Of a stretch of DNA of 32,000 nt, positions 1,712 through 26,943 are shown in pieces. Numbering within the stretch: the first letter of the stretch is position 1; the number at the start of each line of letters is the position of its first letter. The translations under genes and the position numbers were made by a program. The DNA is from Candidatus Methylomirabilis oxygeniifera. GTDB lineage: Bacteria > Methylomirabilota > Methylomirabilia > Methylomirabilales > Methylomirabilaceae. Location of the stretch: assembly GCA_000091165.1 (NCBI GenBank), contig FP565575.1:2160001-2192000 (forward strand), read 5' to 3'. The notes beneath the pieces are model-generated. The model did not search any database. It was not told where the DNA came from and saw nothing but the letters and a program-made list of their open reading frames with translations.

Positions 1712-3325
1712 TTATCTGCCCCGTAGGCGACGAACGATGGCACCCAGGCGCTGCATCGCGGCCGAGTAGGTCCCTGGCGGGATCATCGCATCGATCAGGA
1801 TTGTGGCTGCGACATCCAGCGCCTCCACTAAGGCCCGCTCAAGCTCCTCGGCTGTGCGAACGCGAACGGCGCGAGCCCCAAGGCTTTCGGCCAGCCGCAC
1901 ATAGTCGGGGGTCGGCAGGTCGTACGATCGAGCGGGTCCATCCATCGCGGCCAGCATGCCATGGCTGTGATTGTTAAAGAGGATGACAATGGCGTGCAGG
2001 TTCAGCCGTACGCATGTCACCAGGTCTAAGCCGGTCATAAGGAAGGCGCCATCGCCCACCAGGGCCACAGGCCGCCGGCTCGGTTCGGCTAAGCCTGCGC
2101 CGATGGCCGCCGGCACCGCAAAGCCCATGCTGGAGTAATAGCCTGGCCCCAGGAACATATCCGTCTCCAACTCTACGCTCGCGAAGAGCGCATCGCCGAC
2201 ATCAGCGGCGTACAGGACCGGCCGGTCGGCCGCCACCCGATTGAGTACGGCAATAATAGCATCCGGCGTCAGCGTCCCGGCCGTGGACGGTTGAGGCGGC
2301 ATCGGCGGCGGAAGCGGCTCCACACGCTTCGGCGCCTCCGGCAGGGCAAGGAGCGCATCCATCAGTTCCTCCAGGCTCACATCCGGGAACCGGTGGTAGC
2401 TGACCGTGACACCCTCATGGACGGCCGAGATGACCTTGCGCCGATCAAACCGGGCCGTATACATGCCGGTGTTGACGTCGGTCATGAGGGCACCGAGCAT
2501 CAGGACACAGTCGGCCGTCTCCAGCACCTTGCGGGCCCGGGGCGACCCGATTTCGCCGAGATAGTTGCCTGCGAAGAGGGGATGCCGTTCCGGGAAGACT
2601 GCCTTGCCGTCCAGGGACGTGGCCACCGGCAGCTCGTACTTTTCCGCGAGCGCCACCAGCTTGTTGTGGAGCCGAAAGCGGCGGATCTCGGCGCCCGCAT
2701 AGATGGCCGGCAATTCGGCCACCCGGATGCGAGCCAGTACCTCGGCCAGTGCCTCATTGGCGGCGCGCTCATCTCGTGGTCGGACTTCCGGCTCACGTCT
2801 GGCAGGTACGGGCACGTCCGCCCGAATCATGTCCCGCGGGATCTCGATGTAGCCGGGACGCTTCGTGCGGAGGATACTGTCGATCACACGGTCCACCTCA
2901 GCAATGGCATGGGCCGGGTCATCGAGGGCCGTAGCGACGCCGGTGACCTCGCGGTAGACGCGGAGTTGGCTCTCGAAGTTTTTGACCCGGTGATGTAGGA
3001 GGGCATCGGGATCGCGATGGGCGATCTCCGGCGCGCCGGACAGGACGAGCACGGGCGATCGCTCGGCGTAGGCCTGCGCAGTCGCGTTCACCATATTGAG
3101 GGCGCCGGCGCCCCAGGTCACTGCCGCCACGCCCAGCCCCTGGACCCGCGCATAGGCGTCCGCCGCATACCCCACGGCCGGCTCATGGGTGAGGATCACC
3201 GGCTCGATCCCGGGCTCCTCCTCCAGAGCCCGGAAGAAGGGCAGGAAAAAATCACCCGGTAGGCCAAACACATGCCGTACCCCGGCTTCCTTAAATCGCT
3301 TAAACAGATACCGGCTCAGTTCCAT
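1712..3325 (-). CDS. Thiamine-pyrophosphate-dependent 2-oxoacid decarboxylase family enzyme (IpdC/PDC-like)
   Basis: 537 aa. N-terminal TPP pyrimidine-binding domain (HVFGLPGDFFLPFF...HEPAVGYAADAYAR) and C-terminal TPP motif (GDGAFLMTGLDL...NN). Substrate cannot be inferred. Confidence 0.8.
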   Translation of the reverse strand: MELSRYLFKRFKEAGVRHVFGLPGDFFLPFFRALEEEPGIEPVILTHEPAVGYAADAYARVQGLGVAAVTWGAGALNMVNATAQAYAERSPVLVLSGAPEIAHRDPDALLHHRVKNFESQLRVYREVTGVATALDDPAHAIAEVDRVIDSILRTKRPGYIEIPRDMIRADVPVPARREPEVRPRDERAANEALAEVLARIRVAELPAIYAGAEIRRFRLHNKLVALAEKYELPVATSLDGKAVFPERHPLFAGNYLGEIGSPRARKVLETADCVLMLGALMTDVNTGMYTARFDRRKVISAVHEGVTVSYHRFPDVSLEELMDALLALPEAPKRVEPLPPPMPPQPSTAGTLTPDAIIAVLNRVAADRPVLYAADVGDALFASVELETDMFLGPGYYSSMGFAVPAAIGAGLAEPSRRPVALVGDGAFLMTGLDLVTCVRLNLHAIVILFNNHSHGMLAAMDGPARSYDLPTPDYVRLAESLGARAVRVRTAEELERALVEALDVAATILIDAMIPPGTYSAAMQRLGAIVRRLRGR

Positions 3326-7490: not shown

Positions 7491-7571
7491 GCGCTCAGCC
7501 ATCAGCAGTCAGCAGAATCAGGATAAGGAAACGAAGGCTGATCGCCGAAAGCTGACTGCTGTTCGCTTCAG
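7491..7571. repeat. Heptad-repeat hairpin element, TCAGC/GCTGA type (copy A)
   Basis: Left units are GCGCTCA GCCATCA GCAGTCA GCAGAAT. Right units are GCTGATC GCCGAAA GCTGACT GCTGTTC GCTTCAG. Terminal stem is CAGCAGTCAGC / GCTGACTGCTG. Fills the gap between the cupin stop (7568) and the kinase start. Confidence 0.8.
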
Positions 7572-11156: not shown

Positions 11157-12395
11157 ATGATGTCCCGTTCTTCTCTTCGCCTCAGGACGGTGGTGGCCCT
11201 CATAGCGTTCCTCCTGCTCGGCTCGTCATCCGGCGTGGCAGCCGAAACAAAGACAGGGGCCTCATCGCGCCTCCGCGAAAAGCGTCAAGAGCTCAGCCAA
11301 GTAAAAAGAGATCTGAACCGGGAACGCAAGCAGGCGCAACAGGTGGCGCAGAAGGAGCGAACGCTTTTTGACGAGCTGGACCGGATCGATCATGAGCTGC
11401 AGCAAAAGGGACGGGAACTGAAGGAATTGCAGACCAGGCTGAAGGTAAGTGCTGAACGGCTGCTGACCACTCAGCACGATATCACACTCACCCGGACTCG
11501 CCTTAACCAGATACAGGACCTGTTCCGGAGGCGCATGCGCGCCATTTACAAACAGGGACGACACGGCTATGTCCAGGCCCTCCTATCCTCGGAGGATCTA
11601 TCGGGCGCCGAGCGCCGCATACGGTACCTCGGGGCAATTGCTAATCAGGACCAGCGGATGGTGGCGGCCTACACGACCACTCTCGACACGCTGGGGGCTC
11701 AACAGGCCACGTTGGAACAGTCAAGGGCTGAACTGACCACGAGCCAGAAAGCCATCACAGCAAAGCGCGAAGAGATTCTGGAGGAGCAGAATACCAGACG
11801 CGTGTTGTTGGCCAAGGTTCAGGAGCACAAGAAGGGCCACTTGACAGCCATCCGGGATCTGGAGCTGGCGGCCCGCGAGCTCCAGGGTCTTATCAGTCGC
11901 CTGCAGCAACAGAGGCGACTCCAGATCGCAAGAGGGTCTCGCCCCGCACCGTCGCGGGCTCATGGCCAGACCGACGAATCGGATGGATCGTTTTCATCGC
12001 TCAAGGGCCGCTTGCCGTGGCCCACGGCCGGCGTCATGACGTCTACGTTCGGTCGGCAGGAGCACGTACGGTATAGGACGGTCACATTTAACCACGGCAT
12101 CGAGATTCATGCCCCAGAGGGACAAAAGATCGCGTCAGTCTCCGACGGCGTTGTACTGTACGCTGATTGGTTCAAAGGGTATGGCCGCTTGATCGTCCTT
12201 GACCACGGGGACGGGTACTACACCGTCTATGCGCATGCCGCCGAGATCCTTGTCAGACTGGGCGATCACGTGACGAAGGGACAGACCATCGGGTTGGTGG
12301 GCGCCACGGGGTCTGTGACCGGATCCCAGCTCTATTTCGAAGTACGGTATCAGGGCGGGGCTCAGGATCCCGCAGCCTGGCTTGTCTCTAACTGA
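11157..12395 (+). CDS. EnvC-like murein hydrolase activator (coiled coil + M23/LytM peptidase domain)
   Basis: Signal peptide, long Q/E/R/L-rich coiled coil, and a C-terminal M23 domain (HGIEIHAPEG...VLDHGDGYYTVYAH...GATGSVTGSQLYFEVR). Confidence 0.85.
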   Translation: MMSRSSLRLRTVVALIAFLLLGSSSGVAAETKTGASSRLREKRQELSQVKRDLNRERKQAQQVAQKERTLFDELDRIDHELQQKGRELKELQTRLKVSAERLLTTQHDITLTRTRLNQIQDLFRRRMRAIYKQGRHGYVQALLSSEDLSGAERRIRYLGAIANQDQRMVAAYTTTLDTLGAQQATLEQSRAELTTSQKAITAKREEILEEQNTRRVLLAKVQEHKKGHLTAIRDLELAARELQGLISRLQQQRRLQIARGSRPAPSRAHGQTDESDGSFSSLKGRLPWPTAGVMTSTFGRQEHVRYRTVTFNHGIEIHAPEGQKIASVSDGVVLYADWFKGYGRLIVLDHGDGYYTVYAHAAEILVRLGDHVTKGQTIGLVGATGSVTGSQLYFEVRYQGGAQDPAAWLVSN

Positions 12396-12405
12396 TGTGA
12401 AACGA

Positions 12406-12468
12406 GAGGGTTGAGGGTTTAATCAAAGGGGACCCCCTAGACCCTAAACCCTAGGCCCTATACCCTTT
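12406..12468. repeat. Heptad-repeat hairpin element, GGGTT/CCCTA type (copy B), 9 x 7 nt
   Basis: GAGGGTT GAGGGTT TAATCAA AGGGGAC CCCCTAG ACCCTAA ACCCTAG GCCCTAT ACCCTTT, between the envC-like stop (12395) and the ctpA start (12485). Confidence 0.8.
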
Positions 12469-12484
12469 CTCTTAGGAGGAATCG

Positions 12485-13825
12485 ATGAGATTCGGAGATC
12501 TGTTTCGAAAGGGGCGGAAGGGTGTCGTCATCATATTGACGATGGCGTTGTTGGTCATCGGTGGCGGCGGCCACCATGAGGTCACGGCTGTCGAGGACAG
12601 CTACGAACGGCTGAAGGTCTTCGCCGAGGTCCTGTCGCTGATTCAGGCGAATTACGTCGAGGAGACGAAGCCTCGCGACCTGATCTACAGCGGCATTAAG
12701 GGAATGCTGGAGTCGCTGGATCCTCACAGCGCCTTCATGCCGCCCGATATCTTCAAAGAGATGCAGGTTGAGACTCAGGGCTCGTTCGGAGGGCTGGGAA
12801 TCGAGATCACGGTCAAGGACAGGATGCTGACGGTGGTGGCGCCGATTGAAGGGACCCCCGCCGATCGGGCCGGGATTCACCCTGGCGACCGGATCGTCAA
12901 GATCGACGGAAGTCCGACGAAAGACATGACCCTCATGGAGGCGGTAAAAAAGCTCCGAGGTCCAAAGGGGACAAACGTGGTTGTGACTATCCTCCGCGAG
13001 GAGTCCCCTGGGCCGTTCGAGCTGACGTTGGTTCGGGAGATCATCGAGGTCAAGAGCGTCAAAGTCAAAGAGTTGGGCGATGGGGTCGCCTACGTCCGGA
13101 TCAGCGCGTTCCAGGAACGAACCGGAAAGGACCTCCAGAAGGCGATCGAACAGTTGGGACAGAACGGGATGTCCGCGATGGTGCTGGATCTTCGCAACAA
13201 CCCGGGCGGCCTCTTAAACCAGGCTGTTCAGGTGTCCGAACTGTTCCTGGACCAAGGGCAACTCATCGTCTACACCGAGGGTCGGATCAAGAATCAAGAT
13301 CTCCGCTTCTCGGCGGAACACGGGGCTCAGATCCCCAAGGTTCCTATGGTGGTCTTGGTGAACGGAGGATCCGCCAGCGCCTCCGAGATCGTCGCGGGCG
13401 CGCTTCAGGACTGGAAGAGGGCCGTAGTCCTTGGAACCAAGACCTTCGGGAAGGGGTCGGTGCAGACAGTGGTTCCGCTAAGCGATGGTTCCGGCCTGCG
13501 TTTGACTACGGCAAAGTACTTCACGCCAAAAGGGCGATCAATCCACGGCACAGGACTTGTGCCTGATATCATTGTGGAGGCGCCACGGCCCACCATGGCG
13601 AAGGCACAGGTTGACCCCGCTGAAAAGGAGAGTGAGTCGGGGAAAGAGCGTCCTGAGAGACGACAGGAGAAGAAGATCTCCGAAGAGGAGGGAGACGTCA
13701 CGCTCCAGATCGGCAAGCGAGAGGGGCCTGATCCCAGCACCGACGTCCAGTTGAAGCGAGCAATGGAGATTCTCAAGGCCAGCCAGATCATCGAGAAGGG
13801 ATTCATGAAGGGGAACGCTGGATAA
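12485..13825 (+). CDS. ctpA: Carboxy-terminal processing protease (S41A, PDZ-containing)
   Basis: 446 aa with TM/signal anchor, PDZ (GLGIEI...GTPADRAGIHPGDRIVKIDG) and catalytic blocks (LDLRNNPGG, GSASASEIVAGALQD, TFGKGSVQ). Confidence 0.9.
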   Translation: MRFGDLFRKGRKGVVIILTMALLVIGGGGHHEVTAVEDSYERLKVFAEVLSLIQANYVEETKPRDLIYSGIKGMLESLDPHSAFMPPDIFKEMQVETQGSFGGLGIEITVKDRMLTVVAPIEGTPADRAGIHPGDRIVKIDGSPTKDMTLMEAVKKLRGPKGTNVVVTILREESPGPFELTLVREIIEVKSVKVKELGDGVAYVRISAFQERTGKDLQKAIEQLGQNGMSAMVLDLRNNPGGLLNQAVQVSELFLDQGQLIVYTEGRIKNQDLRFSAEHGAQIPKVPMVVLVNGGSASASEIVAGALQDWKRAVVLGTKTFGKGSVQTVVPLSDGSGLRLTTAKYFTPKGRSIHGTGLVPDIIVEAPRPTMAKAQVDPAEKESESGKERPERRQEKKISEEEGDVTLQIGKREGPDPSTDVQLKRAMEILKASQIIEKGFMKGNAG

Positions 13826-13829
13826 GGCA

Positions 13830-13892
13830 GCAGTCAGCCATCAGCATTCAGCGGTCAGCTCCAAGCTGTTTGCTGAGAGCTGATAGCTGCTC
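13830..13892. repeat. Heptad-repeat hairpin element, TCAGC/GCTGA type (copy C), 9 x 7 nt
   Basis: GCAGTCA GCCATCA GCATTCA GCGGTCA GCTCCAA GCTGTTT GCTGAGA GCTGATA GCTGCTC, all in one 7-nt register. Lies 5 nt after the ctpA stop and 7 nt before the tsaD start. Confidence 0.85.
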
Positions 13893-13898
13893 TTCACA

Positions 13899-14987
13899 AT
13901 GGCACATCTGACTCTGGGAATTGAAACCTCGTGCGATGAGACGGCGGCCGCTATCCTGGAGGATGGTCGACGCATCCGTTCTTCCGTCGTCGCCTCTCAG
14001 GATCTCCTCCACGCCCCTTACGGCGGGGTCGTCCCCGAATTGGCCTCACGTCGTCATACAGAGGTTATCTGGCCGGTGGTCCGGGAGGCGTTGACGAGGG
14101 CGGGGGTCGGCCTCGACAACCTTGATGGCATTGCGGCAACGTCAGGGCCAGGACTGATCGGCTCGCTGCTGGTTGGCCTCTGCTTCGGAAAGGCGCTCGC
14201 CTTTGCCTGTGGAATCCCCCTAGTCGGCGTAAACCACCTAGAGGGACATCTCTATGCCGCCCTGTTGGATCACGAAGGGCTTTCCTTCCCCTTCACCGGA
14301 CTCGTGGCATCGGGTGGTCATACCCACCTGTACCTGGCCACAGCCCCTGGCGAGTATCGCTTGCTGGGCCGAACCAGAGACGATGCCGCAGGAGAGGCAT
14401 TCGACAAGGTAGCAAAGTTTCTCGGTCTCGGTTATCCGGGCGGGCCGCTGATCGAGAAGTGGGCCCAGAAGGGCGATCCGAACGCTGTACGGTTTCCCAG
14501 GTCGATTCCTCCGCGAGGCTCATACGATTTCAGTTTCAGCGGCCTGAAGACCGCAGTGGTGAATTACGTGAAGAGTGCAACGTTCAAGGTTCAAGGTTCA
14601 GGGGAACCCCCCCTATCCCCTAGCCCCTCGACCCTAGACCCTCGTGTGGTGGCGGACATCTGCGCTGGATTCCAGGAGGCTGTGGTGAATGTGCTGGTTC
14701 GCGTGAGTCTGGCGGCGGCGAAGGCGTCCGCCTCTCGCCGTCTCGTGCTGGCCGGAGGGGTGGCCTGCAACGGCAGGCTCCGCTCGGAGTTTGTGGAGCG
14801 GGCACCAGGGGAAGGCGTACAGGTCTACTACCCCACGCCGTCTCTGTGTACCGATAACGCCGCCATGATTGCTGCCGCCGGTTACCCTCGTCTTCTGCGC
14901 GGCGAGCGAGCCTTACTCTCGCTGAACGCCGACGCCGATCTCGCTCTTGGCCTGTCTGCGTGCCCCACACAGGCAGACCTGACATAA
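13899..14987 (+). CDS. tsaD: tRNA N6-adenosine threonylcarbamoyltransferase TsaD, carrying a 21-codon repeat-derived insertion
   Basis: 362 aa with canonical blocks (LGIETSCDETAAAI, GPGLIGSLLVG, VNHLEGH, ASGGHT, DDAAGEAFDK, GGVACN, CTDNAAMIA). Confidence 0.95.
   Translation: MAHLTLGIETSCDETAAAILEDGRRIRSSVVASQDLLHAPYGGVVPELASRRHTEVIWPVVREALTRAGVGLDNLDGIAATSGPGLIGSLLVGLCFGKALAFACGIPLVGVNHLEGHLYAALLDHEGLSFPFTGLVASGGHTHLYLATAPGEYRLLGRTRDDAAGEAFDKVAKFLGLGYPGGPLIEKWAQKGDPNAVRFPRSIPPRGSYDFSFSGLKTAVVNYVKSATFKVQGSGEPPLSPSPSTLDPRVVADICAGFQEAVVNVLVRVSLAAAKASASRRLVLAGGVACNGRLRSEFVERAPGEGVQVYYPTPSLCTDNAAMIAAAGYPRLLRGERALLSLNADADLALGLSACPTQADLT
14583..14645 (+). repeat. Heptad-repeat element (GGGTT/CCCTA type, copy G) embedded in frame in tsaD, 9 x 7 nt
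   Basis: TTCAAGG TTCAAGG TTCAGGG GAACCCC CCCTATC CCCTAGC CCCTCGA CCCTAGA CCCTCGT. Corresponds to codons 229-249 (FKVQGSGEPPLSPSPSTLDPR). Confidence 0.8.
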
Positions 14988-14997
14988 AGGAACGCGA

Positions 14998-15507
14998 ATG
15001 GCGAAACTGTCGATTCTACTCTACCCATCTCCCGTCATCCGTAAGAAGTCTGTGTCGGTGACGTCGATTAACGGCGAGCTTCAGCGCTTCATCGACGACA
15101 TGGTGGAAACGATGTATGCGGCTCCGGGCATGGGGCTTGCCGCTCCCCAAGTGGGAGCACTCAAGCGGGTCATCGTCCTGGACCCATCCGACGATCGTAC
15201 GTCGCATCGGCCTATGGCCCTTATCAATCCCGTGCTGGTCGCCGGTGAAGGACAGATCGTAGATGAAGAGGGATGTCTCTGTATCCCGGACCTGAATGAG
15301 CCGGTCTCGCGATTCAAGCAGGTGGTCGTAAAAGCCTACGATCGGAACGAGAAGGAGATCATTCTGGAGGGGGCCGACCTGCTGGCGCGTATCCTGCAGC
15401 ACGAGATCGACCACTTGGATGGTATCCTATTTATCGACCGCCTGAGTACGGCAAAGCGCCTCCTGCTCAAGCGGCGGCTCAAGAAGGCAGCCAAACAGGG
15501 GGACTAG
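14998..15507 (+). CDS. def: Peptide deformylase
   Basis: 169 aa with the three signature motifs GLAAPQVG, EGCLCIP and HEIDHLDG. Confidence 0.95.
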   Translation: MAKLSILLYPSPVIRKKSVSVTSINGELQRFIDDMVETMYAAPGMGLAAPQVGALKRVIVLDPSDDRTSHRPMALINPVLVAGEGQIVDEEGCLCIPDLNEPVSRFKQVVVKAYDRNEKEIILEGADLLARILQHEIDHLDGILFIDRLSTAKRLLLKRRLKKAAKQGD

Positions 15508-15569
15508 CTTTCGGCGATCAGCAGTCAGCTTGAAGCTGAAGGCTGAACGCTGATGGCTCTGACTGCTAT
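15507..15569. repeat. Heptad-repeat hairpin element, TCAGC/GCTGA type (copy D), 9 x 7 nt, between convergent genes
   Basis: GCTTTCG GCGATCA GCAGTCA GCTTGAA GCTGAAG GCTGAAC GCTGATG GCTCTGA CTGCTAT. Stem is AGCAGTCAG / CTGACTGCT. Touches the def stop (15505-15507) and the SurA-like stop (15566-15568). Confidence 0.85.
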
Positions 15570-16615
15570 AACTTCATTTCAACGTTGGCTTTGGTCCTGA
15601 GACTCTCAATCCACTCCTTGAATTTCGTCTCGGTCTTTTGCTCAAACAGCAGAGCGCGGAGGCGCTCCTTCACCTGATCGAATGACAGGGTCTGACCGGG
15701 AACCCGCTCCTCGACGACAATAAGGTGGAAGCCGGCCGGAGTCGTGATGATGCCGCTGGGCTGTCCGATCGGGAGGGCGAGAGCAGCCTGCTCCAACTCC
15801 GGTGCGAGTTCTCCGTGCTTCATCGTCCAGACCTCGCCGCTGGACGACGCGAGCGGCCCTTCCGCATATTGCTTGGCGACCGTCGCGAACTGTGTTCCCT
15901 TCTTAAGAAGCGTCTGCGCTTCCTCGATCCGCTTCTTGGCTCGCGACAGCTCGCCGGGCGTCGCCTGAGGGGGCGTAGCCACGAGGAGATGGCGAATCTT
16001 GAATTGCGGGATCTCCCTGAATTGGTCCTGCCGTTGCTCGTAATATTGCTGGACCTCCTCATCGAGAACGACGACCTTGGCTCGTACCCGCCTCGCCACC
16101 AGCTTCGTCAGCATCACCTGGTCGGCAATCCCCTTCCGAAACTGCTCCTCGCTGAGTTGTTCTCTGGACAGCGCAGCCCTGAGTTCCTCGTCGCTGGCTA
16201 ACCCATTACGCTTCTTTAATTCCTCGATGGCGGACTGTATCTCCGCAGGGGCCGTCTCGATCTTCTCCTTTGTCGCCTCCTGAAGCTGTAACCTCCTGAG
16301 AATCAGCTCGTCCAGAATCTGGCGTTCCGTACTGCGAAGCAGCCGCTCTCGCTCCGCTCCCAGCGTTTCCCGTACGATCCTTCGGATAGCCTGAATCCCC
16401 TCCTCTTGCACGTCGGTCAGGGTAATCACATCATCGTTGACAACGGCAACGATGCGATCGAGGATCACCGCATCGGCGCCTGAAGCGGCGAAAACACTGA
16501 GCAGAAGGATAACAGTCATAAGGGAAGCGTGGAGCGTGGAGCGTGGAGCGTGGAAGGATAGACCGACCCTGCTCTGCCGCCTGCCGCCTGCCGCCTGCTG
16601 CCTTGCTCGTTTCAT
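15566..16615 (-). CDS. SurA-like periplasmic chaperone / PpiC-type peptidyl-prolyl isomerase
   Basis: SurA N-terminal-like helical domain plus a parvulin domain (FKIRHLLV...GELSRAKKRIEEAQ...GG.V..M..GEL.PE...A...L..GQ.SGII.T..GFHLI). Start taken at ATG 16615, which overlaps the mfd stop as ATGA. An alternative internal ATG at 16519 lacks a charged n-region. Confidence 0.8.
   Translation of the reverse strand: MKRARQQAAGGRRQSRVGLSFHAPRSTLHASLMTVILLLSVFAASGADAVILDRIVAVVNDDVITLTDVQEEGIQAIRRIVRETLGAERERLLRSTERQILDELILRRLQLQEATKEKIETAPAEIQSAIEELKKRNGLASDEELRAALSREQLSEEQFRKGIADQVMLTKLVARRVRAKVVVLDEEVQQYYEQRQDQFREIPQFKIRHLLVATPPQATPGELSRAKKRIEEAQTLLKKGTQFATVAKQYAEGPLASSSGEVWTMKHGELAPELEQAALALPIGQPSGIITTPAGFHLIVVEERVPGQTLSFDQVKERLRALLFEQKTETKFKEWIESLRTKANVEMKL
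16523..16606. repeat. Heptad tandem-repeat element (copy E), 12 x 7 nt in one register, no obvious hairpin
   Basis: GGAAGCG TGGAGCG TGGAGCG TGGAGCG TGGAAGG ATAGACC GACCCTG CTCTGCC GCCTGCC GCCTGCC GCCTGCT GCCTTGC. Corresponds to codons 4-31 counted from ATG 16615 (codons 6-33 of the ORF-track ORF starting at GTG 16621). Confidence 0.8.
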
Positions 16616-19600
16616 CGACACGCCTGAAGACGCGACAATAGCGTCTGAGCAATAGCGATCTTGTCGCCTCCCTCTACCTTGTATTCCAGTTCATCGTACC
16701 CTGTACGGTAACCTCCCACGGGCCCCCCTTTTGTAGAGGAGGGATGGGAGGATTTCGGAATATAGCGTAATCGGCCGCCCTCTTCACGAAGCAGAGTCGC
16801 GACCTTGTCCGGAGCAAGCGGCGGCGACTCATCGAACACGATACGGATCGTCTTGCCCACGACAACAGCCTCGCGAATGTGGAGCGTCCGGGCCAGGATT
16901 CTAAGCGCCATCGCGGTCAGCAGCCGTTCCGTCTCTGGAGGAGGCTCACCAAAGCGATCGACCAGCTCCTCTCGAAGGGCGGAGACCTCCGACAACCCAG
17001 AGAACGCGGCCAATCGCTTGTAGAGCTGGAGCCGTACGTTGGAATCCTCTATATAGATCTCCGGCAGATACCCTTCCGCCTCCAGCCTGATGACAGGCTC
17101 GACGGGTTCCGCCACCGCCTGACCCTTCAACTCTTTGACCGTTGACTCGATCAATCGGCAGTACAGATCAATCCCTACGGCGGCGATCTGGCCGTGCTGC
17201 TCCGGTCCCAGGAGGTTACCCGTGCCCCTGATCTCCAGATCTCTCGCCGCCACCTTGAATCCGGAGCCAAGCTCGGTCAGTTCTGCAATGACCTGGAGTC
17301 GCTTCTTTGCCGTCTCAGACAGCGCAGCATCCTTCGGTACCAGGAGGTAGGCGTAGGCTCGATGCTTGTCCCGACCGACCCGTCCGCGAAGCTGATAGAG
17401 CTGCGCGAGGCCCAAGGCATCGGCTCGATCGATAATGATCGTGTTGGCGGCGCTGACATCCAGGCCGGATTCGATAATCGTGGTACACAACAGGACATTG
17501 AATGTGCCGTCGTAGAAGTCGCACATGATCCGTTCCAGGCGTTCTTCCGGTAATTCGCCGTGCGCCACCGCCAGTCTCGCCTCAGGAACCAACTGCTTGA
17601 TCAGACGCGCCACGCCCTGGATGCTCTCCACGCGATTATGGACGAAGAAGACCTGCCCCCCTCTGTCCAGCTCGTGCTCTATCGCCTCTTTGATGAGCGC
17701 CGGGTCGAACCTGGCGACGGTCGTTTTGATCGAGAGACGGTTATCCGGCGCGGTCTCGATGGTGCTGATGTCCCGGACTCCCAACATCGACATATGAAGG
17801 GTCCGCGGAATCGGTGTGGCGGTAAGCGTCAGGACATCGACCTGTCGCCGCAGTTGCTTCATGCGCTCCTTAGCCGCGACGCCAAAGCGGTGCTCCTCAT
17901 CCACCACTAACAGCCCCAGGTCTCGAAACCGGACATCCTTCTGGAGCAGGCGGTGGGTGCCGATCACGATATCGACAACCCCCTCACCGACGCCACGCAG
18001 CACCTCGCTCTGCTCCTTGCGGCTGCGGAAGCGTGAGAGCATCTCAACCTTAGCCGGAAAGCCGCCGAACCGCTCGGAAAACGTCTGAAAATGCTGCAGG
18101 GCAAGGACCGTAGTCGGCACCAGCACCGCGACCTGCTTTCCCCCTATGATCGTCTTAAAGGCGGCCCGCATCGCCACCTCGGTCTTACCGTATCCGACGT
18201 CGCCGCAGATCAGACGGTCCATCGGCCGGTCTCGCTCCATGTCGGCCTTGACGTCGGCGATCGCCTGGAGTTGGTCCGGGGTTTCCTCATATGGAAATCC
18301 AGCCTCGAATTCCCGTTGCCACGGCGTATCGGGGGGGAGGGCATGCCCTTTGATGACCTGTCTGGACGCATACAGCGCGAGCAACTCCTGGGCCATCTCG
18401 CGAACGGACGCCTTGACCCGCTCCTTGGCCTTGGCCCACGAGGCGCTCCCCAACCGGTCGAGGGTCGGTGGATTGCTGTCAGCACCCGCATACCGATGGA
18501 TCAGGTGGAGTTTACCGGTAGGCACATACAGCTTGGCGTGCTCGGCATAGAGGATGAGCAGGTAGTCACCCTCCGTCCCGCCCACAGTAAGCTGCCGCAG
18601 CCCTTTGTACACACCGATCCCGTGATCCTCGTGAACCACAAAATCGCCATAGGTCAACTCCTGGTACGAGGCAAGAGGGGAGATCTCCTTTGGTCGCAAG
18701 CGTCGAGGTGGGATGTGCCGAGCCCCAAAGATCTCGGCTTCGGTGATATAGGTCAGCAATGCCTCATCCAGATGAAAGCCGCTGCTGAGCTCGTGAGAAA
18801 GAACGGCAATCTCACCCGGCGACGCCACGCCGAGCCCGACAGACGCCGCGACATCGTGCTCCCTCAGTACCTCAGCCAGGCGCCCACCCTGGGCCTCACT
18901 CCTGCAGACCAGGTGGATTTTCCGACCCTGCCGACGCCACTCTTGGAGGTCGCGTATCAATTCGGTCATTCGTCCACGGTAGGCCGGAATGGTGCGTACC
19001 TGAAACCCGAGAGTCGCCTCTTCCGCAAGGCTGTTCGTCGGTAAGAACTCCTCCATGTAGATCCGCGGCCGCAGAGAGAGCCTCTGTTCAACGTCGCTCC
19101 AGTCGACCAGTGAGGTGGACGGCGCGACGTCGCGCGCCGCAGCCCGGAGGCCGGTCGGATCTATCAAGACCCACAAGGCATCCGGAGCTACGTACTGCAG
19201 GAGATCGGCCGGTTCCGGATAGAAGTATGGAAGATACGTATCGAGGCCCAGGACCTGTCGCCGATCCTCAAGCGCCGTGATGATCTCGGACGGAACCGAG
19301 CTGTCCCGGGTCTTCTTCATCGCGCGGAGCACCTCGAGGGCCCGCCGACATACCTCACCGGTCAATGGCGCCTCTACAACCGGCAGGACGGTCACCTGCT
19401 CAACGGAGCCGATGGACCGCTGGGTAGCCGGATCGAATGCACGGAGTTCAAGTATCTCGTCACCGAAGAACTCAGCGCGAACAGGACAATCCGGCGGTTC
19501 GACACGGCCTGTGGTGAGCCCGGTCGAACCGTTCAGGCTGGGTGTGAGGGGGAACAGGTCGAGGAGGTTCCCGCGCAGGCTGTATTCGCCGCGGTCTGTC

Positions 19601-20085
19601 GTCTGATGCACTCGACGGTAACCACCTGTCTCGAGAACGCCAACCAGTTCATCCCGCGCGATCAGTCGTCCGACGTACAGCGTAAAGGCGGCTCCCAGGA
19701 TAGCCGAGGGAGGCGCAAGGCGTTCGAGGGCCGCTTGAAGACAGACAACTGCAAGGTCACAGTTCTTGGTCGCCAGACCCGTCAGACAGGTAATCCGCTG
19801 ATACCCGGTCTCTGGATCCTCATCGCGTTCGGCCATGACACCTACCGAGTCGCGGAAGAAGACTTGCAGATCCTTCGCCAGCAGCTCGGCCTCAGCAGAC
19901 GAGGAGGTTACGACCACGAGAGGGCGACCCGACCGGCGAGCGATCTGGGAAAGGATCAACGCTTTCGAGGCTCCGAAAAGGCCGGTGAGATATAGCGCGT
20001 CCGCTCCGCTGTCAAGTCGGTCCACGATCTCGCCGATCTCCGGGATTCGGAGATCTTCCGCCAACTCCATCGATCGTATTACCAT
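16612..20085 (-). CDS. mfd: Transcription-repair coupling factor Mfd
   Basis: UvrB-homology N-terminus, CarD/TRCF RNAP-interacting domain, superfamily-2 translocase motifs (GDVGYGKTEVA, DEEHRFGV, LTATPIPRT, QLRGRVGR) and a C-terminal TRCF domain. Start set at ATG 20085 (alternative 20070). The 43 upstream codons in the ORF track cross a palindrome and the rfaE2-like gene end. Confidence 0.95.
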   Translation of the reverse strand: MVIRSMELAEDLRIPEIGEIVDRLDSGADALYLTGLFGASKALILSQIARRSGRPLVVVTSSSAEAELLAKDLQVFFRDSVGVMAERDEDPETGYQRITCLTGLATKNCDLAVVCLQAALERLAPPSAILGAAFTLYVGRLIARDELVGVLETGGYRRVHQTTDRGEYSLRGNLLDLFPLTPSLNGSTGLTTGRVEPPDCPVRAEFFGDEILELRAFDPATQRSIGSVEQVTVLPVVEAPLTGEVCRRALEVLRAMKKTRDSSVPSEIITALEDRRQVLGLDTYLPYFYPEPADLLQYVAPDALWVLIDPTGLRAAARDVAPSTSLVDWSDVEQRLSLRPRIYMEEFLPTNSLAEEATLGFQVRTIPAYRGRMTELIRDLQEWRRQGRKIHLVCRSEAQGGRLAEVLREHDVAASVGLGVASPGEIAVLSHELSSGFHLDEALLTYITEAEIFGARHIPPRRLRPKEISPLASYQELTYGDFVVHEDHGIGVYKGLRQLTVGGTEGDYLLILYAEHAKLYVPTGKLHLIHRYAGADSNPPTLDRLGSASWAKAKERVKASVREMAQELLALYASRQVIKGHALPPDTPWQREFEAGFPYEETPDQLQAIADVKADMERDRPMDRLICGDVGYGKTEVAMRAAFKTIIGGKQVAVLVPTTVLALQHFQTFSERFGGFPAKVEMLSRFRSRKEQSEVLRGVGEGVVDIVIGTHRLLQKDVRFRDLGLLVVDEEHRFGVAAKERMKQLRRQVDVLTLTATPIPRTLHMSMLGVRDISTIETAPDNRLSIKTTVARFDPALIKEAIEHELDRGGQVFFVHNRVESIQGVARLIKQLVPEARLAVAHGELPEERLERIMCDFYDGTFNVLLCTTIIESGLDVSAANTIIIDRADALGLAQLYQLRGRVGRDKHRAYAYLLVPKDAALSETAKKRLQVIAELTELGSGFKVAARDLEIRGTGNLLGPEQHGQIAAVGIDLYCRLIESTVKELKGQAVAEPVEPVIRLEAEGYLPEIYIEDSNVRLQLYKRLAAFSGLSEVSALREELVDRFGEPPPETERLLTAMALRILARTLHIREAVVVGKTIRIVFDESPPLAPDKVATLLREEGGRLRYIPKSSHPSSTKGGPVGGYRTGYDELEYKVEGGDKIAIAQTLLSRLQACR

Positions 20086-20099
20086 ACGGTCAGCACTCA

Positions 20100-20127
20100 G
20101 TAGGGGCACGTTGCAACGTGCCCCTAC
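20100..20127. repeat. 28-bp perfect palindrome GTAGGGGCACGT-TGCA-ACGTGCCCCTAC
   Basis: 12-bp GC-rich arms around a TGCA centre. Contains the rfaE2-like stop codon (20124-20126) and lies about 15 nt upstream of the mfd start. No U-tract follows on the transcribed strand. Confidence 0.85.
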
Positions 20128-20615
20128 AGCCGTGTCATTTCCATGATACGACGTACGATACGACTTGTAGAACAGCCCTCCACCAACGGGATCGTAACGA
20201 CCAGCCCGCCACACCTCTCTACCGTCTCCCGCCCCACGACGTCTTCCATCGCCCAGTCGGCGCCCTTGACCAACACATCGGGCTCAAGCGCTGCGATGAC
20301 GCAGCTCGGATCCGCCTCCTCAAAGATTACCACGTAGTCGACCGAGGCCAGAGCCGACAGCAACTCTGCCCGTTCATCCTGCAAGAGCACGGGTCTGGAC
20401 GGGCCCTTCAGAAGTCGAACGGATGCGTCACTGTTCAGACCAACAATCAATAGGTCGCCCAACGCCCTTGCTTGCTGCAACAGGCGGGTATGTCCCCGGT
20501 GAAGCAAATCAAAACAGCCGTTGGTAAAAACTGTCCGCTCTCCCAGCGCCCGACGCCGCCTGACGATCGCAACCAGCTCATGCAAGGTTCTGAGCTTTCC
20601 GACATCGACCGTCAT
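20124..20615 (-). CDS. D-glycero-beta-D-manno-heptose 1-phosphate adenylyltransferase (RfaE domain II / HldC-like cytidylyltransferase fold)
   Basis: 163 aa from the ATG that overlaps the upstream gene stop as ATGA. Carries FTNGCFDLLHRGH (the HxGH nucleotidyltransferase motif) and typical RfaE2 blocks (VGLNSD.SV..LKG..RP, VDYVV.FEE..P). Confidence 0.85.
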   Translation of the reverse strand: MTVDVGKLRTLHELVAIVRRRRALGERTVFTNGCFDLLHRGHTRLLQQARALGDLLIVGLNSDASVRLLKGPSRPVLLQDERAELLSALASVDYVVIFEEADPSCVIAALEPDVLVKGADWAMEDVVGRETVERCGGLVVTIPLVEGCSTSRIVRRIMEMTRL

Positions 20616-20872
20616 TCCGGCGTCCCGATCTCTCCTGGAACAACGGAGAGCAATCCGCACAGAACGGCCTGCTCGATCAGCCGTCTCCCTTTTTCAGCAT
20701 ACGGGGCGGAGGTCATCAGCCGAATCTCCCCAAGCGGACCGAAGGTAATCCCCTGAAATCCGCCGACTCGCATAGAACGAATCCAGCACGGCACACCATA
20801 CCGTTGCAGATGCAGACGGAGAAGGTCCGCCTGCATCTCATCATACGTCGTATAAATCATCCGCTCATACAT
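20612..20872 (-). CDS. DUF2007-like small protein (putative signal-transducing beta-alpha-beta fold)
   Basis: About 86 aa (MYERMIYTTYDEMQADLLRLHLQRYGVPCWIRS...) resembling DUF2007 proteins. Translationally coupled to the downstream adenylyltransferase gene. Start uncertain (20872 or 20860). Confidence 0.55.
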   Translation of the reverse strand: MYERMIYTTYDEMQADLLRLHLQRYGVPCWIRSMRVGGFQGITFGPLGEIRLMTSAPYAEKGRRLIEQAVLCGLLSVVPGEIGTPE

Positions 20873-26880: not shown

Positions 26881-26943
26881 TGAATAAGCTGTCAGCACTC
26901 AGCTATCAGCGCTCAGCAAGAGCTGACGACTGACTGCGGACGA
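26881..26943. repeat. Heptad-repeat hairpin element, TCAGC/GCTGA type (copy F)
   Basis: GCTGTCA GCACTCA GCTATCA GCGCTCA GCAAGAG CTGACGA CTGACTG CGGACGA (26888-26943), in the 115-nt gap between the adaptor and RND genes. Confidence 0.8.

Follow-up and report, generated by a model that had tools for sequence, protein, structure and literature searches.

The surA-like gene in the 32,000-nt window analysed here (positions 2,160,001 to 2,192,000 of contig FP565575.1 of Candidatus Methylomirabilis oxygeniifera; all positions below are those of the window) raises a question about its own beginning. On the minus strand, where the gene overlaps the upstream mfd, heptanucleotide repeats occupy 84 nt (16523–16606) just behind the putative start codon. 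Are these repeats translated, and what would they do to the chaperone? The reading we favor, with a probability of about 0.77, is that they are one copy of a paired heptad array of the genus, that they are translated from the ATG at 16615 as an enlarged n-region of the signal peptide, that they are cut off with this peptide, and that their frame is kept by selection. Relatives are cited by L and P numbers.

On the plus strand, the 84 nt read GGAAGCG, TGGAGCG three times, TGGAAGG, ATAGACC, GACCCTG, CTCTGCC, GCCTGCC twice, GCCTGCT, and GCCTTGC, and they make up surA codons 4–31 (translation ARQQAAGGRRQSRVGLSFHAPRSTLHAS). Tandem Repeats Finder (TRF) reported 4.1 copies of AGCGTGG at 16526–16554 with 100% matches and 4.3 copies of CTGCCGC at 16574–16603 with 95% matches. 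The match count of the 14-mer from either array was reached in none of 100 shuffles of the window, and the identity at a lag of 7 across the 84 nt was 0.62, compared with 0.28 ± 0.05 in 2000 shuffles (maximum 0.47). The initial annotation had claimed a heptad repeat filling 28 codons, and direct reading, TRF, and the shuffles all confirmed it. Its further description, 12 units in one register, was correct in part. Two arrays are real, one at 16523–16554 with about three perfect and two imperfect units and one at 16574–16603 with about two perfect and three imperfect units, whereas the three middle “units” are a non-repetitive spacer of 19 nt. The shared register stood: the phase between the arrays was the same modulo 7 in all four copies of the linked (GGCAGGN)n...(CCACGCT)n pair that were compared. 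Three of these copies belong to surA (of the window, L015, and L002) and the fourth to tsaD of L002, with spacings of 32, 25, and 39 nt; about 0.5 Mb was covered.

Evidence for translation comes from the reading frame in relatives. Junction DNA was taken irrespective of gene calls from 14 loci of species-representative genomes and 80 metagenomic loci, together with six exact-protein look-ups picked for short gene calls or an absent insert. Anchoring on the C-terminus of Mfd and on mature SurA gave 42 distinct sequences from the genus, in which the mature SurA-like protein shows 64–95% identity. All 42 junctions have a start codon, ATG (28) or GTG (14), overlapping the TGA of mfd, and in 40 of them this start is in frame with mature SurA with no stop codon between. 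The in-frame leaders are 72, 90, 93, 105, 135, 138, 147, 150, 156, 159, 165, 168, 171, 174, 186, 192, and 219 nt long, and the out-of-frame leaders 142 and 149 nt. Thus 17 of the 19 distinct lengths are multiples of three (binomial P ~6e-7 under no constraint), and at least 16 separate changes in leader length, all frame-preserving, were counted. The initial annotation had pointed out that 12 × 7 = 84 is divisible by three; as the cause of frame-keeping this was rejected, since relatives differ by 3, 6, or 9 nt. Unit arithmetic would give steps of 21 nt, and the observed steps, multiples of three that are not multiples of 21, indicate that the frame is kept by selection.

The absence of stop codons points the same way. 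The 40 in-frame leaders contain no stop in the SurA frame, compared with 88 and 23 in the other two frames (111 in total). Heptads of the form CC[CT]TAN cycle through all three frames; where the triplet falls in frame it is TAT in 12 of 12 cases, while out of frame TAA or TAG occurs in 23 of 49 (P ~0.0016). SurA homologues of the genus mostly carry N-terminal extensions of 40–60 residues that begin M(K/N)xxG and continue in a repeat-like manner, and a few have short, ordinary leaders. The extension sequences include HPTPYTLHPT, VSGFGFRVSG, GAGLALPKAGAASSAPTP, KSPHPPFxKGGxGGIWG, and SARFRVPSS...TWNVERGTWN. Judged from these comparisons, translation of the arrays into an enlarged, positively charged n-region that is lost with the signal peptide is very probable.

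The choice of start codon was examined at the same junctions. The overlap of ATG (16615–16613) and the mfd TGA (16614–16612) as ATGA, described earlier, was read directly, and the surA open reading frame (ORF) from this ATG has 349 codons. A protein from a Candidatus Methylomirabilis oxygeniifera metagenome-assembled genome (MAG), P0001 (349 aa), is 100% identical and is annotated by NCBI from the same ATG. About 20 of the 33 distinct contexts among the relatives have GGAG, often as AGGAG, 6–11 nt ahead of the overlapping start. The alternative raised in the initial annotation, an internal start reading MTVILLL..., indeed lacks a positively charged n-region: initiation at 16519 would give a leader without any positive charge. 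At the position aligned with this ATG, L001 and L040 have CTG, and L002 and L019 have GTG. The internal ATG is therefore unlikely to be the start. Of the two outcomes that had been considered, a long Arg-rich n-region or a displaced start, the relatives favor the former through frame, openness, the Shine–Dalgarno-like motif, and the lack of conservation of the internal ATG. Short gene calls in P0003, P0042, and P0039 were considered as broken frames and this was rejected, because the DNA is open from the overlapping start, as it is in P0003 and P0042, both called from internal starts; only P0025/L098 is truly out of frame in this set. A scan of 15400–17000 found no promoter or terminator.

Read from 16615, the leader resembles a signal peptide of the general secretory (Sec) type. 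After the arrays come the hydrophobic h-region LMTVILLLSVFAA, SGADA, and then the mature sequence VILDRIVAVVND... The n-region has a charge of +7 (K2, R3, R5, R12, R13, R16, and R25), with no acidic residue among the first 31. All 40 in-frame n-regions are net positive, from +1 to +8 with a mean of +4.5, and contain 207 K and R residues versus 28 D and E. Relatives have SEA, SEG, AHA, or VHG at −3 to −1, directly before the conserved VILDR, and the h-region and the small −3 and −1 residues keep a conserved distance from this invariant motif. The leader thus has the positive n-region, the hydrophobic stretch of about 10–15 residues, and the small residues at −3 and −1 of a Sec signal. It departs from the usual short n-region, which spans 31 residues here and 20–54 in array-bearing relatives, versus 3–17 in array-free relatives and outgroups. 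A twin-arginine translocation (Tat) signal was rejected on inspection: RRQSRV departs from the pattern S/T-R-R-x-F-L-K and is 19 residues away from the h-region.

Relatives without the repeat indicate what preceded it. The leader of L095/L096 is ATGAAGAGGACAGGGTGGCTGTTGGTAGTGGCC..., that is, MKRTGW-LLVVAFLWTCVTAFVAEA directly before VILDR, with no repeat. Leaders in L003, L016, and L028/L032/L033 are 30–35 residues long; the array is a vestige in L016 and is absent from L003, L028/L032/L033, L095/L096, and the outgroups. In distant Methylomirabilales (47–51% identity), the mfd TGA overlaps GTGATG, and the leader has 24 residues, e.g., MRRYRMILLPALLLGGQVAAAGQT. The uninterrupted signal peptide that the initial annotation had predicted, MKR joined to an h-region, was thus found in relatives lacking the repeat, as MKRTGW-LLVVAFLWTCVTAFVAEA and similar forms. 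Two observations that could have spoken for a different history were not made. Repeat-free relatives do not start at the equivalent of 16519 behind a spacer, since L095/L096, L003, and L016 start at the (A/G)TGA overlap, and the 28 residues are not conserved as protein, being shared only with L015 and L002, while others differ and the outgroups have the plain 24-residue leader. The idea of a clean inserted block of 84 nt did not survive, as the leaders of array-free relatives measure 72–105 nt versus 147 nt here. Since the same overlapping start is used in array-free relatives and in outgroups, the gene overlap is ancestral and the arrays were added within the genus, between the n-region and the h-region.

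These observations suggest the following course of events. The 84 nt are one copy of an element class in which roughly four G-rich heptads are followed by a spacer of some 20 nt and roughly four C-rich heptads. The ATGA overlap, inherited from the ancestor of the order, leaves no intergenic DNA, and the element therefore lies within the first 31 codons of surA and would be translated. Initiation at the ATG at 16615 would probably be coupled to termination of mfd, helped by AGGCG (16625–16621). The arrays would then encode the 31-residue, +7 n-region, followed by a normal h-region and an ADA-V cleavage site, and the whole 49-residue leader would be removed after A49 on export. Mature SurA would remain unchanged by this removal, so the site would be permissive for insertion and the element may be a tolerated passenger. 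Purifying selection would keep the total length divisible by three and stops out of the frame, while the arrays themselves change fast by gain and loss of units and replacement of whole cassettes.

Rapid replacement is visible among close relatives. Loci with near-identical mature SurA in a neighbor-joining tree (L039, L037, L026, L010, L030, and L031) carry different cassettes, with leaders of 168, 147, and 171 nt. The closest relatives of the window have GTGCAAG/CCCTATA (L099), GGGTTTC with a nested element and CCCTATA (L001), and GGCAGGC/CACGCTC (L015). L099 shares with the window the same 26 nt upstream of the start and has entirely different arrays. Cassettes are thus replaced much faster than their flanks diverge. 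We infer, as candidate mechanisms, unit slippage combined with recombination or gene conversion that draws on a shared pool.

Single-unit changes also occur and break the frame. L019 (=L066; junction ~2927–3075) has a cassette of the L099 type with three GTGCAAG units versus four, and a leader of 149 versus 156 nt. In L019, GGAGG stands 9 nt before an internal GTG that would open MRTLRCPIPCTLYP and then the h-region; initiation in L019/L066 has probably moved to this codon. In L098 (GCA_019912425.1; ~1383–1524; 142 nt), mature SurA lies in the mfd frame, and the only internal start is uncharged. These two, L019=L066 and L098, are the only out-of-frame junctions among the 42.

The surA copy belongs to a class of elements that is common in the genus. 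In a census of periods covering the window and 44 genus loci (256 kb), we found 153 tandem arrays of period 7 and 37 of period 14; no other period between 6 and 16 exceeded 13 arrays. Four units were the commonest copy number (77 of the 153 period-7 arrays), with 32 arrays of three units and 29 of five. Of the 101 arrays outside the junction, 46 fall within long open frames. On the coding strand, the junction elements have a common layout, with a G-rich array, a spacer, and a C-rich array, and their unit families vary by lineage: GGCAGGC/CACGCTC, GGGTTTC/CCCTATA, GGGTGGC, and GGGGTTG/AAACCCT, and further GGTGCGA, GTGCAAG, GGTTCCA/TGGAACG, and GGGTTCC/CCCGAAA. The initial annotation had treated the surA copy as an exception among the copies of the window; instead, it is of the same element class. 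Its accompanying remark that this copy is not self-complementary is roughly right, since the copy folds no better than shuffled sequences, with the correction that four of every seven bases in the arms can pair. Folded as RNA, the window copy forms 4-bp helices split by 3 × 3 loops, at −30.2 kcal/mol versus −28.2 ± 2.7 for shuffles (z = −0.76). A hairpin function for this copy is not supported by folding of the element and of the junction, because the periodic 4-bp helices are no stabler than those in shuffles. Stronger folds occur in relatives (z = −6.8 in L039 and −5.2 in L010).

Several other arrays in the window are intergenic and form hairpins that fill short gene spacers. One (GAGGGTT.../CCCTAGA) lies at 12407–12470, and arrays of the TCAGC/GCTGA type lie at 13826–13895, 15505–15570, 26885–26935, and 7497–7567. 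The array at 13826–13895 takes up nearly the whole 73-nt gap from an S41 peptidase ORF to tsaD. A permissive Rfam search of 12300–17000 gave no match at the element and three sub-threshold matches elsewhere, which we judged to be chance. One sub-threshold Rfam match, to Rickettsia sRNA47 at 13349–13467 on the minus strand (30.9 bits versus a gathering threshold of 60, E = 2.8e-5), falls in the S41 peptidase ORF and probably reflects coding-sequence similarity. When the translated cassette was searched against 5.8 billion proteins, the only matches were tiny spurious ORFs; SurA itself was not recovered, so the search was uninformative on dispersal. Its matches P0121–P0130, from unrelated organisms of other phyla (Calditrichaeota and Zoogloeaceae MAGs), are single (GGCAGGC)n or (CACGCTC)n arrays called as tiny ORFs. 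The units are thus not specific to Methylomirabilis, while no linked pair was seen outside the genus. We found no description of such heptad arrays for Methylomirabilis or NC10 in the literature.

In tsaD, an array pair of this class lies mid-gene, and its translation is beyond question. In the tsaD ORF (13899–14987, plus strand), an in-frame pair at 14578–14644, CAAGGTT × 3.3 and CCCCTAG × 4.7, encodes ...SATFKVQGSGEPPLSPSPSTLDPR..., and the insert adds about 38 residues relative to the Pfam profile. In 28 distinct relatives, tsaD inserts measure 48–126 nt, all multiples of three, with varying unit families and sometimes a nested GTAG element. At least one tsaD pair, that of L015, is direct, not inverted. 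The cassette families at surA and tsaD match within the genome in L002, L009, L020, and L022; often there is no match, and no clear rule emerged. In relatives, e.g., L037, L023, L010, and L015, the 12–15 nt after the last ACCCT unit are similar at the two sites (CCCTGCTCTGATCGCGG at surA versus CCCTGCTCTTATCGCGG at tsaD, both encoding P-A-L-I-A). This likeness hints at copying between the sites that included some flank, or at convergence on hydrophobic codons.

Insertions are also present in mfd. Near its C-terminus, an in-frame insertion KSSHPSSTKGGPVGG at about 16711–16755 (minus strand; DNA AAATCCTCCCATCCCTCC...GGGGGGCCCGTGGGAGG) is imperfectly palindromic, and most relatives are without it. 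L021 and L040 have a different insert of 27 residues at this site, PPPIPPPRRGEGQGG. The palindrome encoding KSPHPPFxKGGxGGIWG, related to the mfd insert, is found in the surA n-region of L035, P0005, and P0006. Farther upstream, about 2.5 kb before the stop, the mfd frames of L022 (459–488) and L027 (464–496) contain GTGCGAA × 4.3 and GCACCTC × 4.7; TRF found no counterpart of these arrays in the mfd of the window.

A 54-nt nested element, GTAGGGGCAGGGCTTGCCCTGCCC-AAG-GCGGGCGCAGCAAGCAGCGCCCCTAC, sits exactly in the inter-array spacer of relatives at both surA and tsaD, where it reads in frame as GAGLALPKAGAASSAPTP. Made up of two GTAG-tagged hairpins in inverted orientation, it resembles repetitive extragenic palindromic (REP) sequences and their doublets (REPINs). 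It occurs at surA in L001, L005, L009, L018, L020, L021, L023, L031, and L097 and at tsaD in L008–L011, L020, L021, and L036. The window has no match to it within 3 mismatches, and its surA element has no GTAG-tagged palindrome. A perfect, GTAG-tagged, REP-like palindrome of 28 nt (GTAGGGGCACGTTG/CAACGTGCCCCTAC) is located at 20100–20127, between a cytidylyltransferase-like ORF (20124–20660, minus strand) and the start region of mfd.

Could the heptads be untranslated? In that case surA would start at ATG 16519 (MTVILLLSVFAASGADA), and the repeats would be a 5′ leader or intercistronic spacer that is open by chance. The other heptad arrays of the window are intergenic, stop codons are often missing from GC-rich heptads, and gene callers placed internal starts on P0003, P0039, and P0042. 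Chance is hard to reconcile with frame and openness conserved over 17 in-frame lengths while the other frames are rich in stops; moreover, ATG 16519 has neither a Shine–Dalgarno motif nor a positive n-region, L001 and L040 have CTG in its place, and the relatives with short calls are open from the overlapping start. We consider an untranslated element very unlikely. A phase-variation switch is a further alternative: with a unit of 7 nt, one heptad more or less moves the frame and would toggle SurA export, in the manner of the CTCTT repeats of Neisseria opa. The unit not divisible by three, the position in leader-peptide codons, the 149-nt L019/L066 cassette that equals the 156-nt L099 cassette minus one GTGCAAG, and the out-of-frame L098 (142 nt) speak for such a switch. 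However, arrays of only 3–5 units should rarely slip, 40 of 42 junctions are “on”, and SurA is a housekeeping chaperone. In L019, the GGAGG before GTG gives a short charged leader (MRTLRCPIP...), which looks like a fixed re-start rather than an “off” phase. The few out-of-frame cases and the short arrays are too little to argue for a switch, which we regard as highly improbable.

A function at the level of nucleic acid, such as an mRNA hairpin or G-quadruplex tuning mfd–surA coupling or mRNA stability, or a DNA structure, is compatible with translation, which would then be a tolerated cost. The arrangement of G-rich arm, spacer, and C-rich arm, with about four units each, is kept in most of the genus despite unit turnover and recurs at gene boundaries and in tsaD; the arms pair periodically in many relatives (z from −2 to −6.8), and four units are what a quadruplex requires, as discussed for Xanthomonas and Nostoc heptamers (PMC4692102). 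The window copy itself, with a z-score of about −0.7 and GG tracts only, lends no support to such a function; several close relatives are array-free (L095, L003, and L016), the scans gave no promoter, terminator, or Rfam family, and the L015 tsaD pair is direct rather than inverted. We consider this function unlikely for the present copy. Several points nevertheless weigh against the translated n-region that we prefer. The genus-wide persistence of paired arrays at the surA site is not explained by a passenger, and selection on DNA or RNA may contribute. An n-region of 31 residues is far beyond the usual Sec length. The AGGCG of the window is a weaker Shine–Dalgarno match than the AGGAG of relatives, and it sits in mfd codons that may be conserved for the sake of Mfd itself. 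Two out-of-frame relatives show that the extension can be dispensed with. Finally, the junctions are phylogenetically related, and the P values given above overstate their independence.

A broader proposal, which we put forward tentatively and consider rather unlikely, is that the paired arrays are an undescribed cassette that is copied or moved among permissive sites (gene boundaries, surA, tsaD, and mfd), exchanged faster than the genes, and kept for a role at the DNA or RNA level, e.g., a structure affecting coupling, mRNA fate, or replication. If so, changes in unit number would occasionally reset a gene start, and the surA leader would be a natural reporter of the cassette process.

The features of the locus are collected in the table. 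The upstream ORF, of 1200 codons, is identified as Mfd by the Pfam families TRCF, CarD_TRCF_RID, DEAD, Helicase_C, and UvrB_inter; its 5′ end is that of the longest ORF as listed and may be too long.

Features of the mfd–surA junction and of the surA-like gene in the window
Feature	Position	Strand	Basis or remark
mfd (transcription-repair coupling factor) ORF, TGA stop 16614–16612	16612..20214	-	ORF list and Pfam
Shine–Dalgarno-like AGGCG, 5 nt upstream of surA ATG, within last mfd codons	16621..16625	-	
Proposed surA start ATG, overlapping mfd stop as ATGA	16613..16615	-	present in relatives too
Heptad array A, G-rich on coding strand, (GGCAGGC)-type, ~4.3 units, encodes RQQAAGGRRQ	16574..16603	-	TRF
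Non-repetitive 19-nt inter-array spacer, coding strand AGCAGGGTCGGTCTATCCT, encodes SRVGLS	16555..16573	-	direct reading
Heptad array B, C-rich on coding strand, (CGCTCCA / CACGCTC)-type, ~4 units, encodes FHAPRSTLHAS	16523..16554	-	TRF 16526–16554
h-region, L32–A44, LMTVILLLSVFAA	16484..16522	-	translation
Internal in-frame ATG (MTVILLL...), alternative start	16517..16519	-	no upstream purine-rich motif
c-region, S45–A49, A-D-A at −3 to −1; predicted signal peptidase I cut before V50	16469..16483	-	
Mature SurA-like chaperone / parvulin peptidyl-prolyl isomerase, 300 aa + stop	15566..16468	-	Pfam SurA_N, SurA_N_3, Rotamase

This study also bears on the role of heptameric repeats in bacteria. 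Such repeats are over-represented in many bacteria. Here, heptads occupy fixed homologous positions throughout a genus, including positions within reading frames, and thereby expose selection on frame and stops directly. The comparison suggests that 20–50 residues of arbitrary repeat-derived sequence can be accommodated in a signal-peptide n-region. It also calls for caution in annotation, as the surA start is called at four different positions in relatives, some of which deprive SurA of its signal peptide. The surA, tsaD, and mfd sites offer a tractable system for the rates at which arrays are gained, lost, and replaced and REP-like elements acquired inside them. Since the mature chaperone is unchanged, the consequence for the biology of Methylomirabilis is probably small.

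Several known systems share features with the element. Short tandemly repeated repetitive (STRR) heptamers of cyanobacteria are heptanucleotide repeats of bacteria. The heptamers GGGAATC of Xanthomonas and GGGGA(C/T)T of Nostoc lie mostly in intergenic DNA between aligned ORFs, prefer four units, and vary between close relatives (Rehm et al. 2015, PMC4692102). Like these, the arrays described here consist of head-to-tail units of 7 nt, with period 7 over-represented, about four units (4.1 and 4.3 in the window), frequent pairing, a mostly intergenic location, and variation in length and sequence at one locus among close relatives. In contrast, the window copy is coding and putatively translated rather than placed between co-oriented genes, and the class has many unit families, a linked G-rich/C-rich pair with a spacer, and an NC10 host. 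Tracts of three G residues are absent from the window units (GGCAGGC and, on the opposite strand, TGGAGCG) and present in those of relatives (GGGTTTC, GGGTGGC, and GGGGTTG).

The opa genes of Neisseria contain pentanucleotide CTCTT coding repeats in the signal-peptide region, in long arrays that switch at high frequency within a strain. The present element is likewise a non-triplet tandem repeat in leader codons, so that a unit change shifts the frame; unlike opa, it has 3–5 units, and nearly all relatives are in frame. The extended signal peptide region (ESPR) of autotransporters is an N-terminal extension ahead of the Sec n-, h-, and c-region core and has a conserved sequence motif. The surA leader similarly places an unusually long extension before a normal core; in contrast, its extension is hypervariable and wholly different between relatives that are 80–95% identical in the mature protein. 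In Nostoc, Elhai and colleagues (2008) reportedly observed small dispersed repeats lying inside tandem heptamers. The 54-nt element inside the heptad pair spacer of relatives resembles these and the GTAG-tagged REP/REPIN doublets, while the surA element of the window has no nested insert.

Rickettsia palindromic elements (RPEs) are 100–150 nt long and of fixed sequence, and are said, after Ogata and colleagues (2000), to be in-frame repeat insertions in protein-coding genes. The array pair likewise is a putatively dispersed repeat within ORFs, with the frame preserved at surA, tsaD, and the C-terminus of mfd, with presence or absence among orthologues, and with insertion in tolerant parts of proteins. 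Unlike RPEs, which we compare by description only, the insert is made of short tandem heptads with lineage-variable units, and the window copy is barely palindromic. The element combines heptameric simple repeats with RPE-like in-frame insertion and lacks defining features of each.

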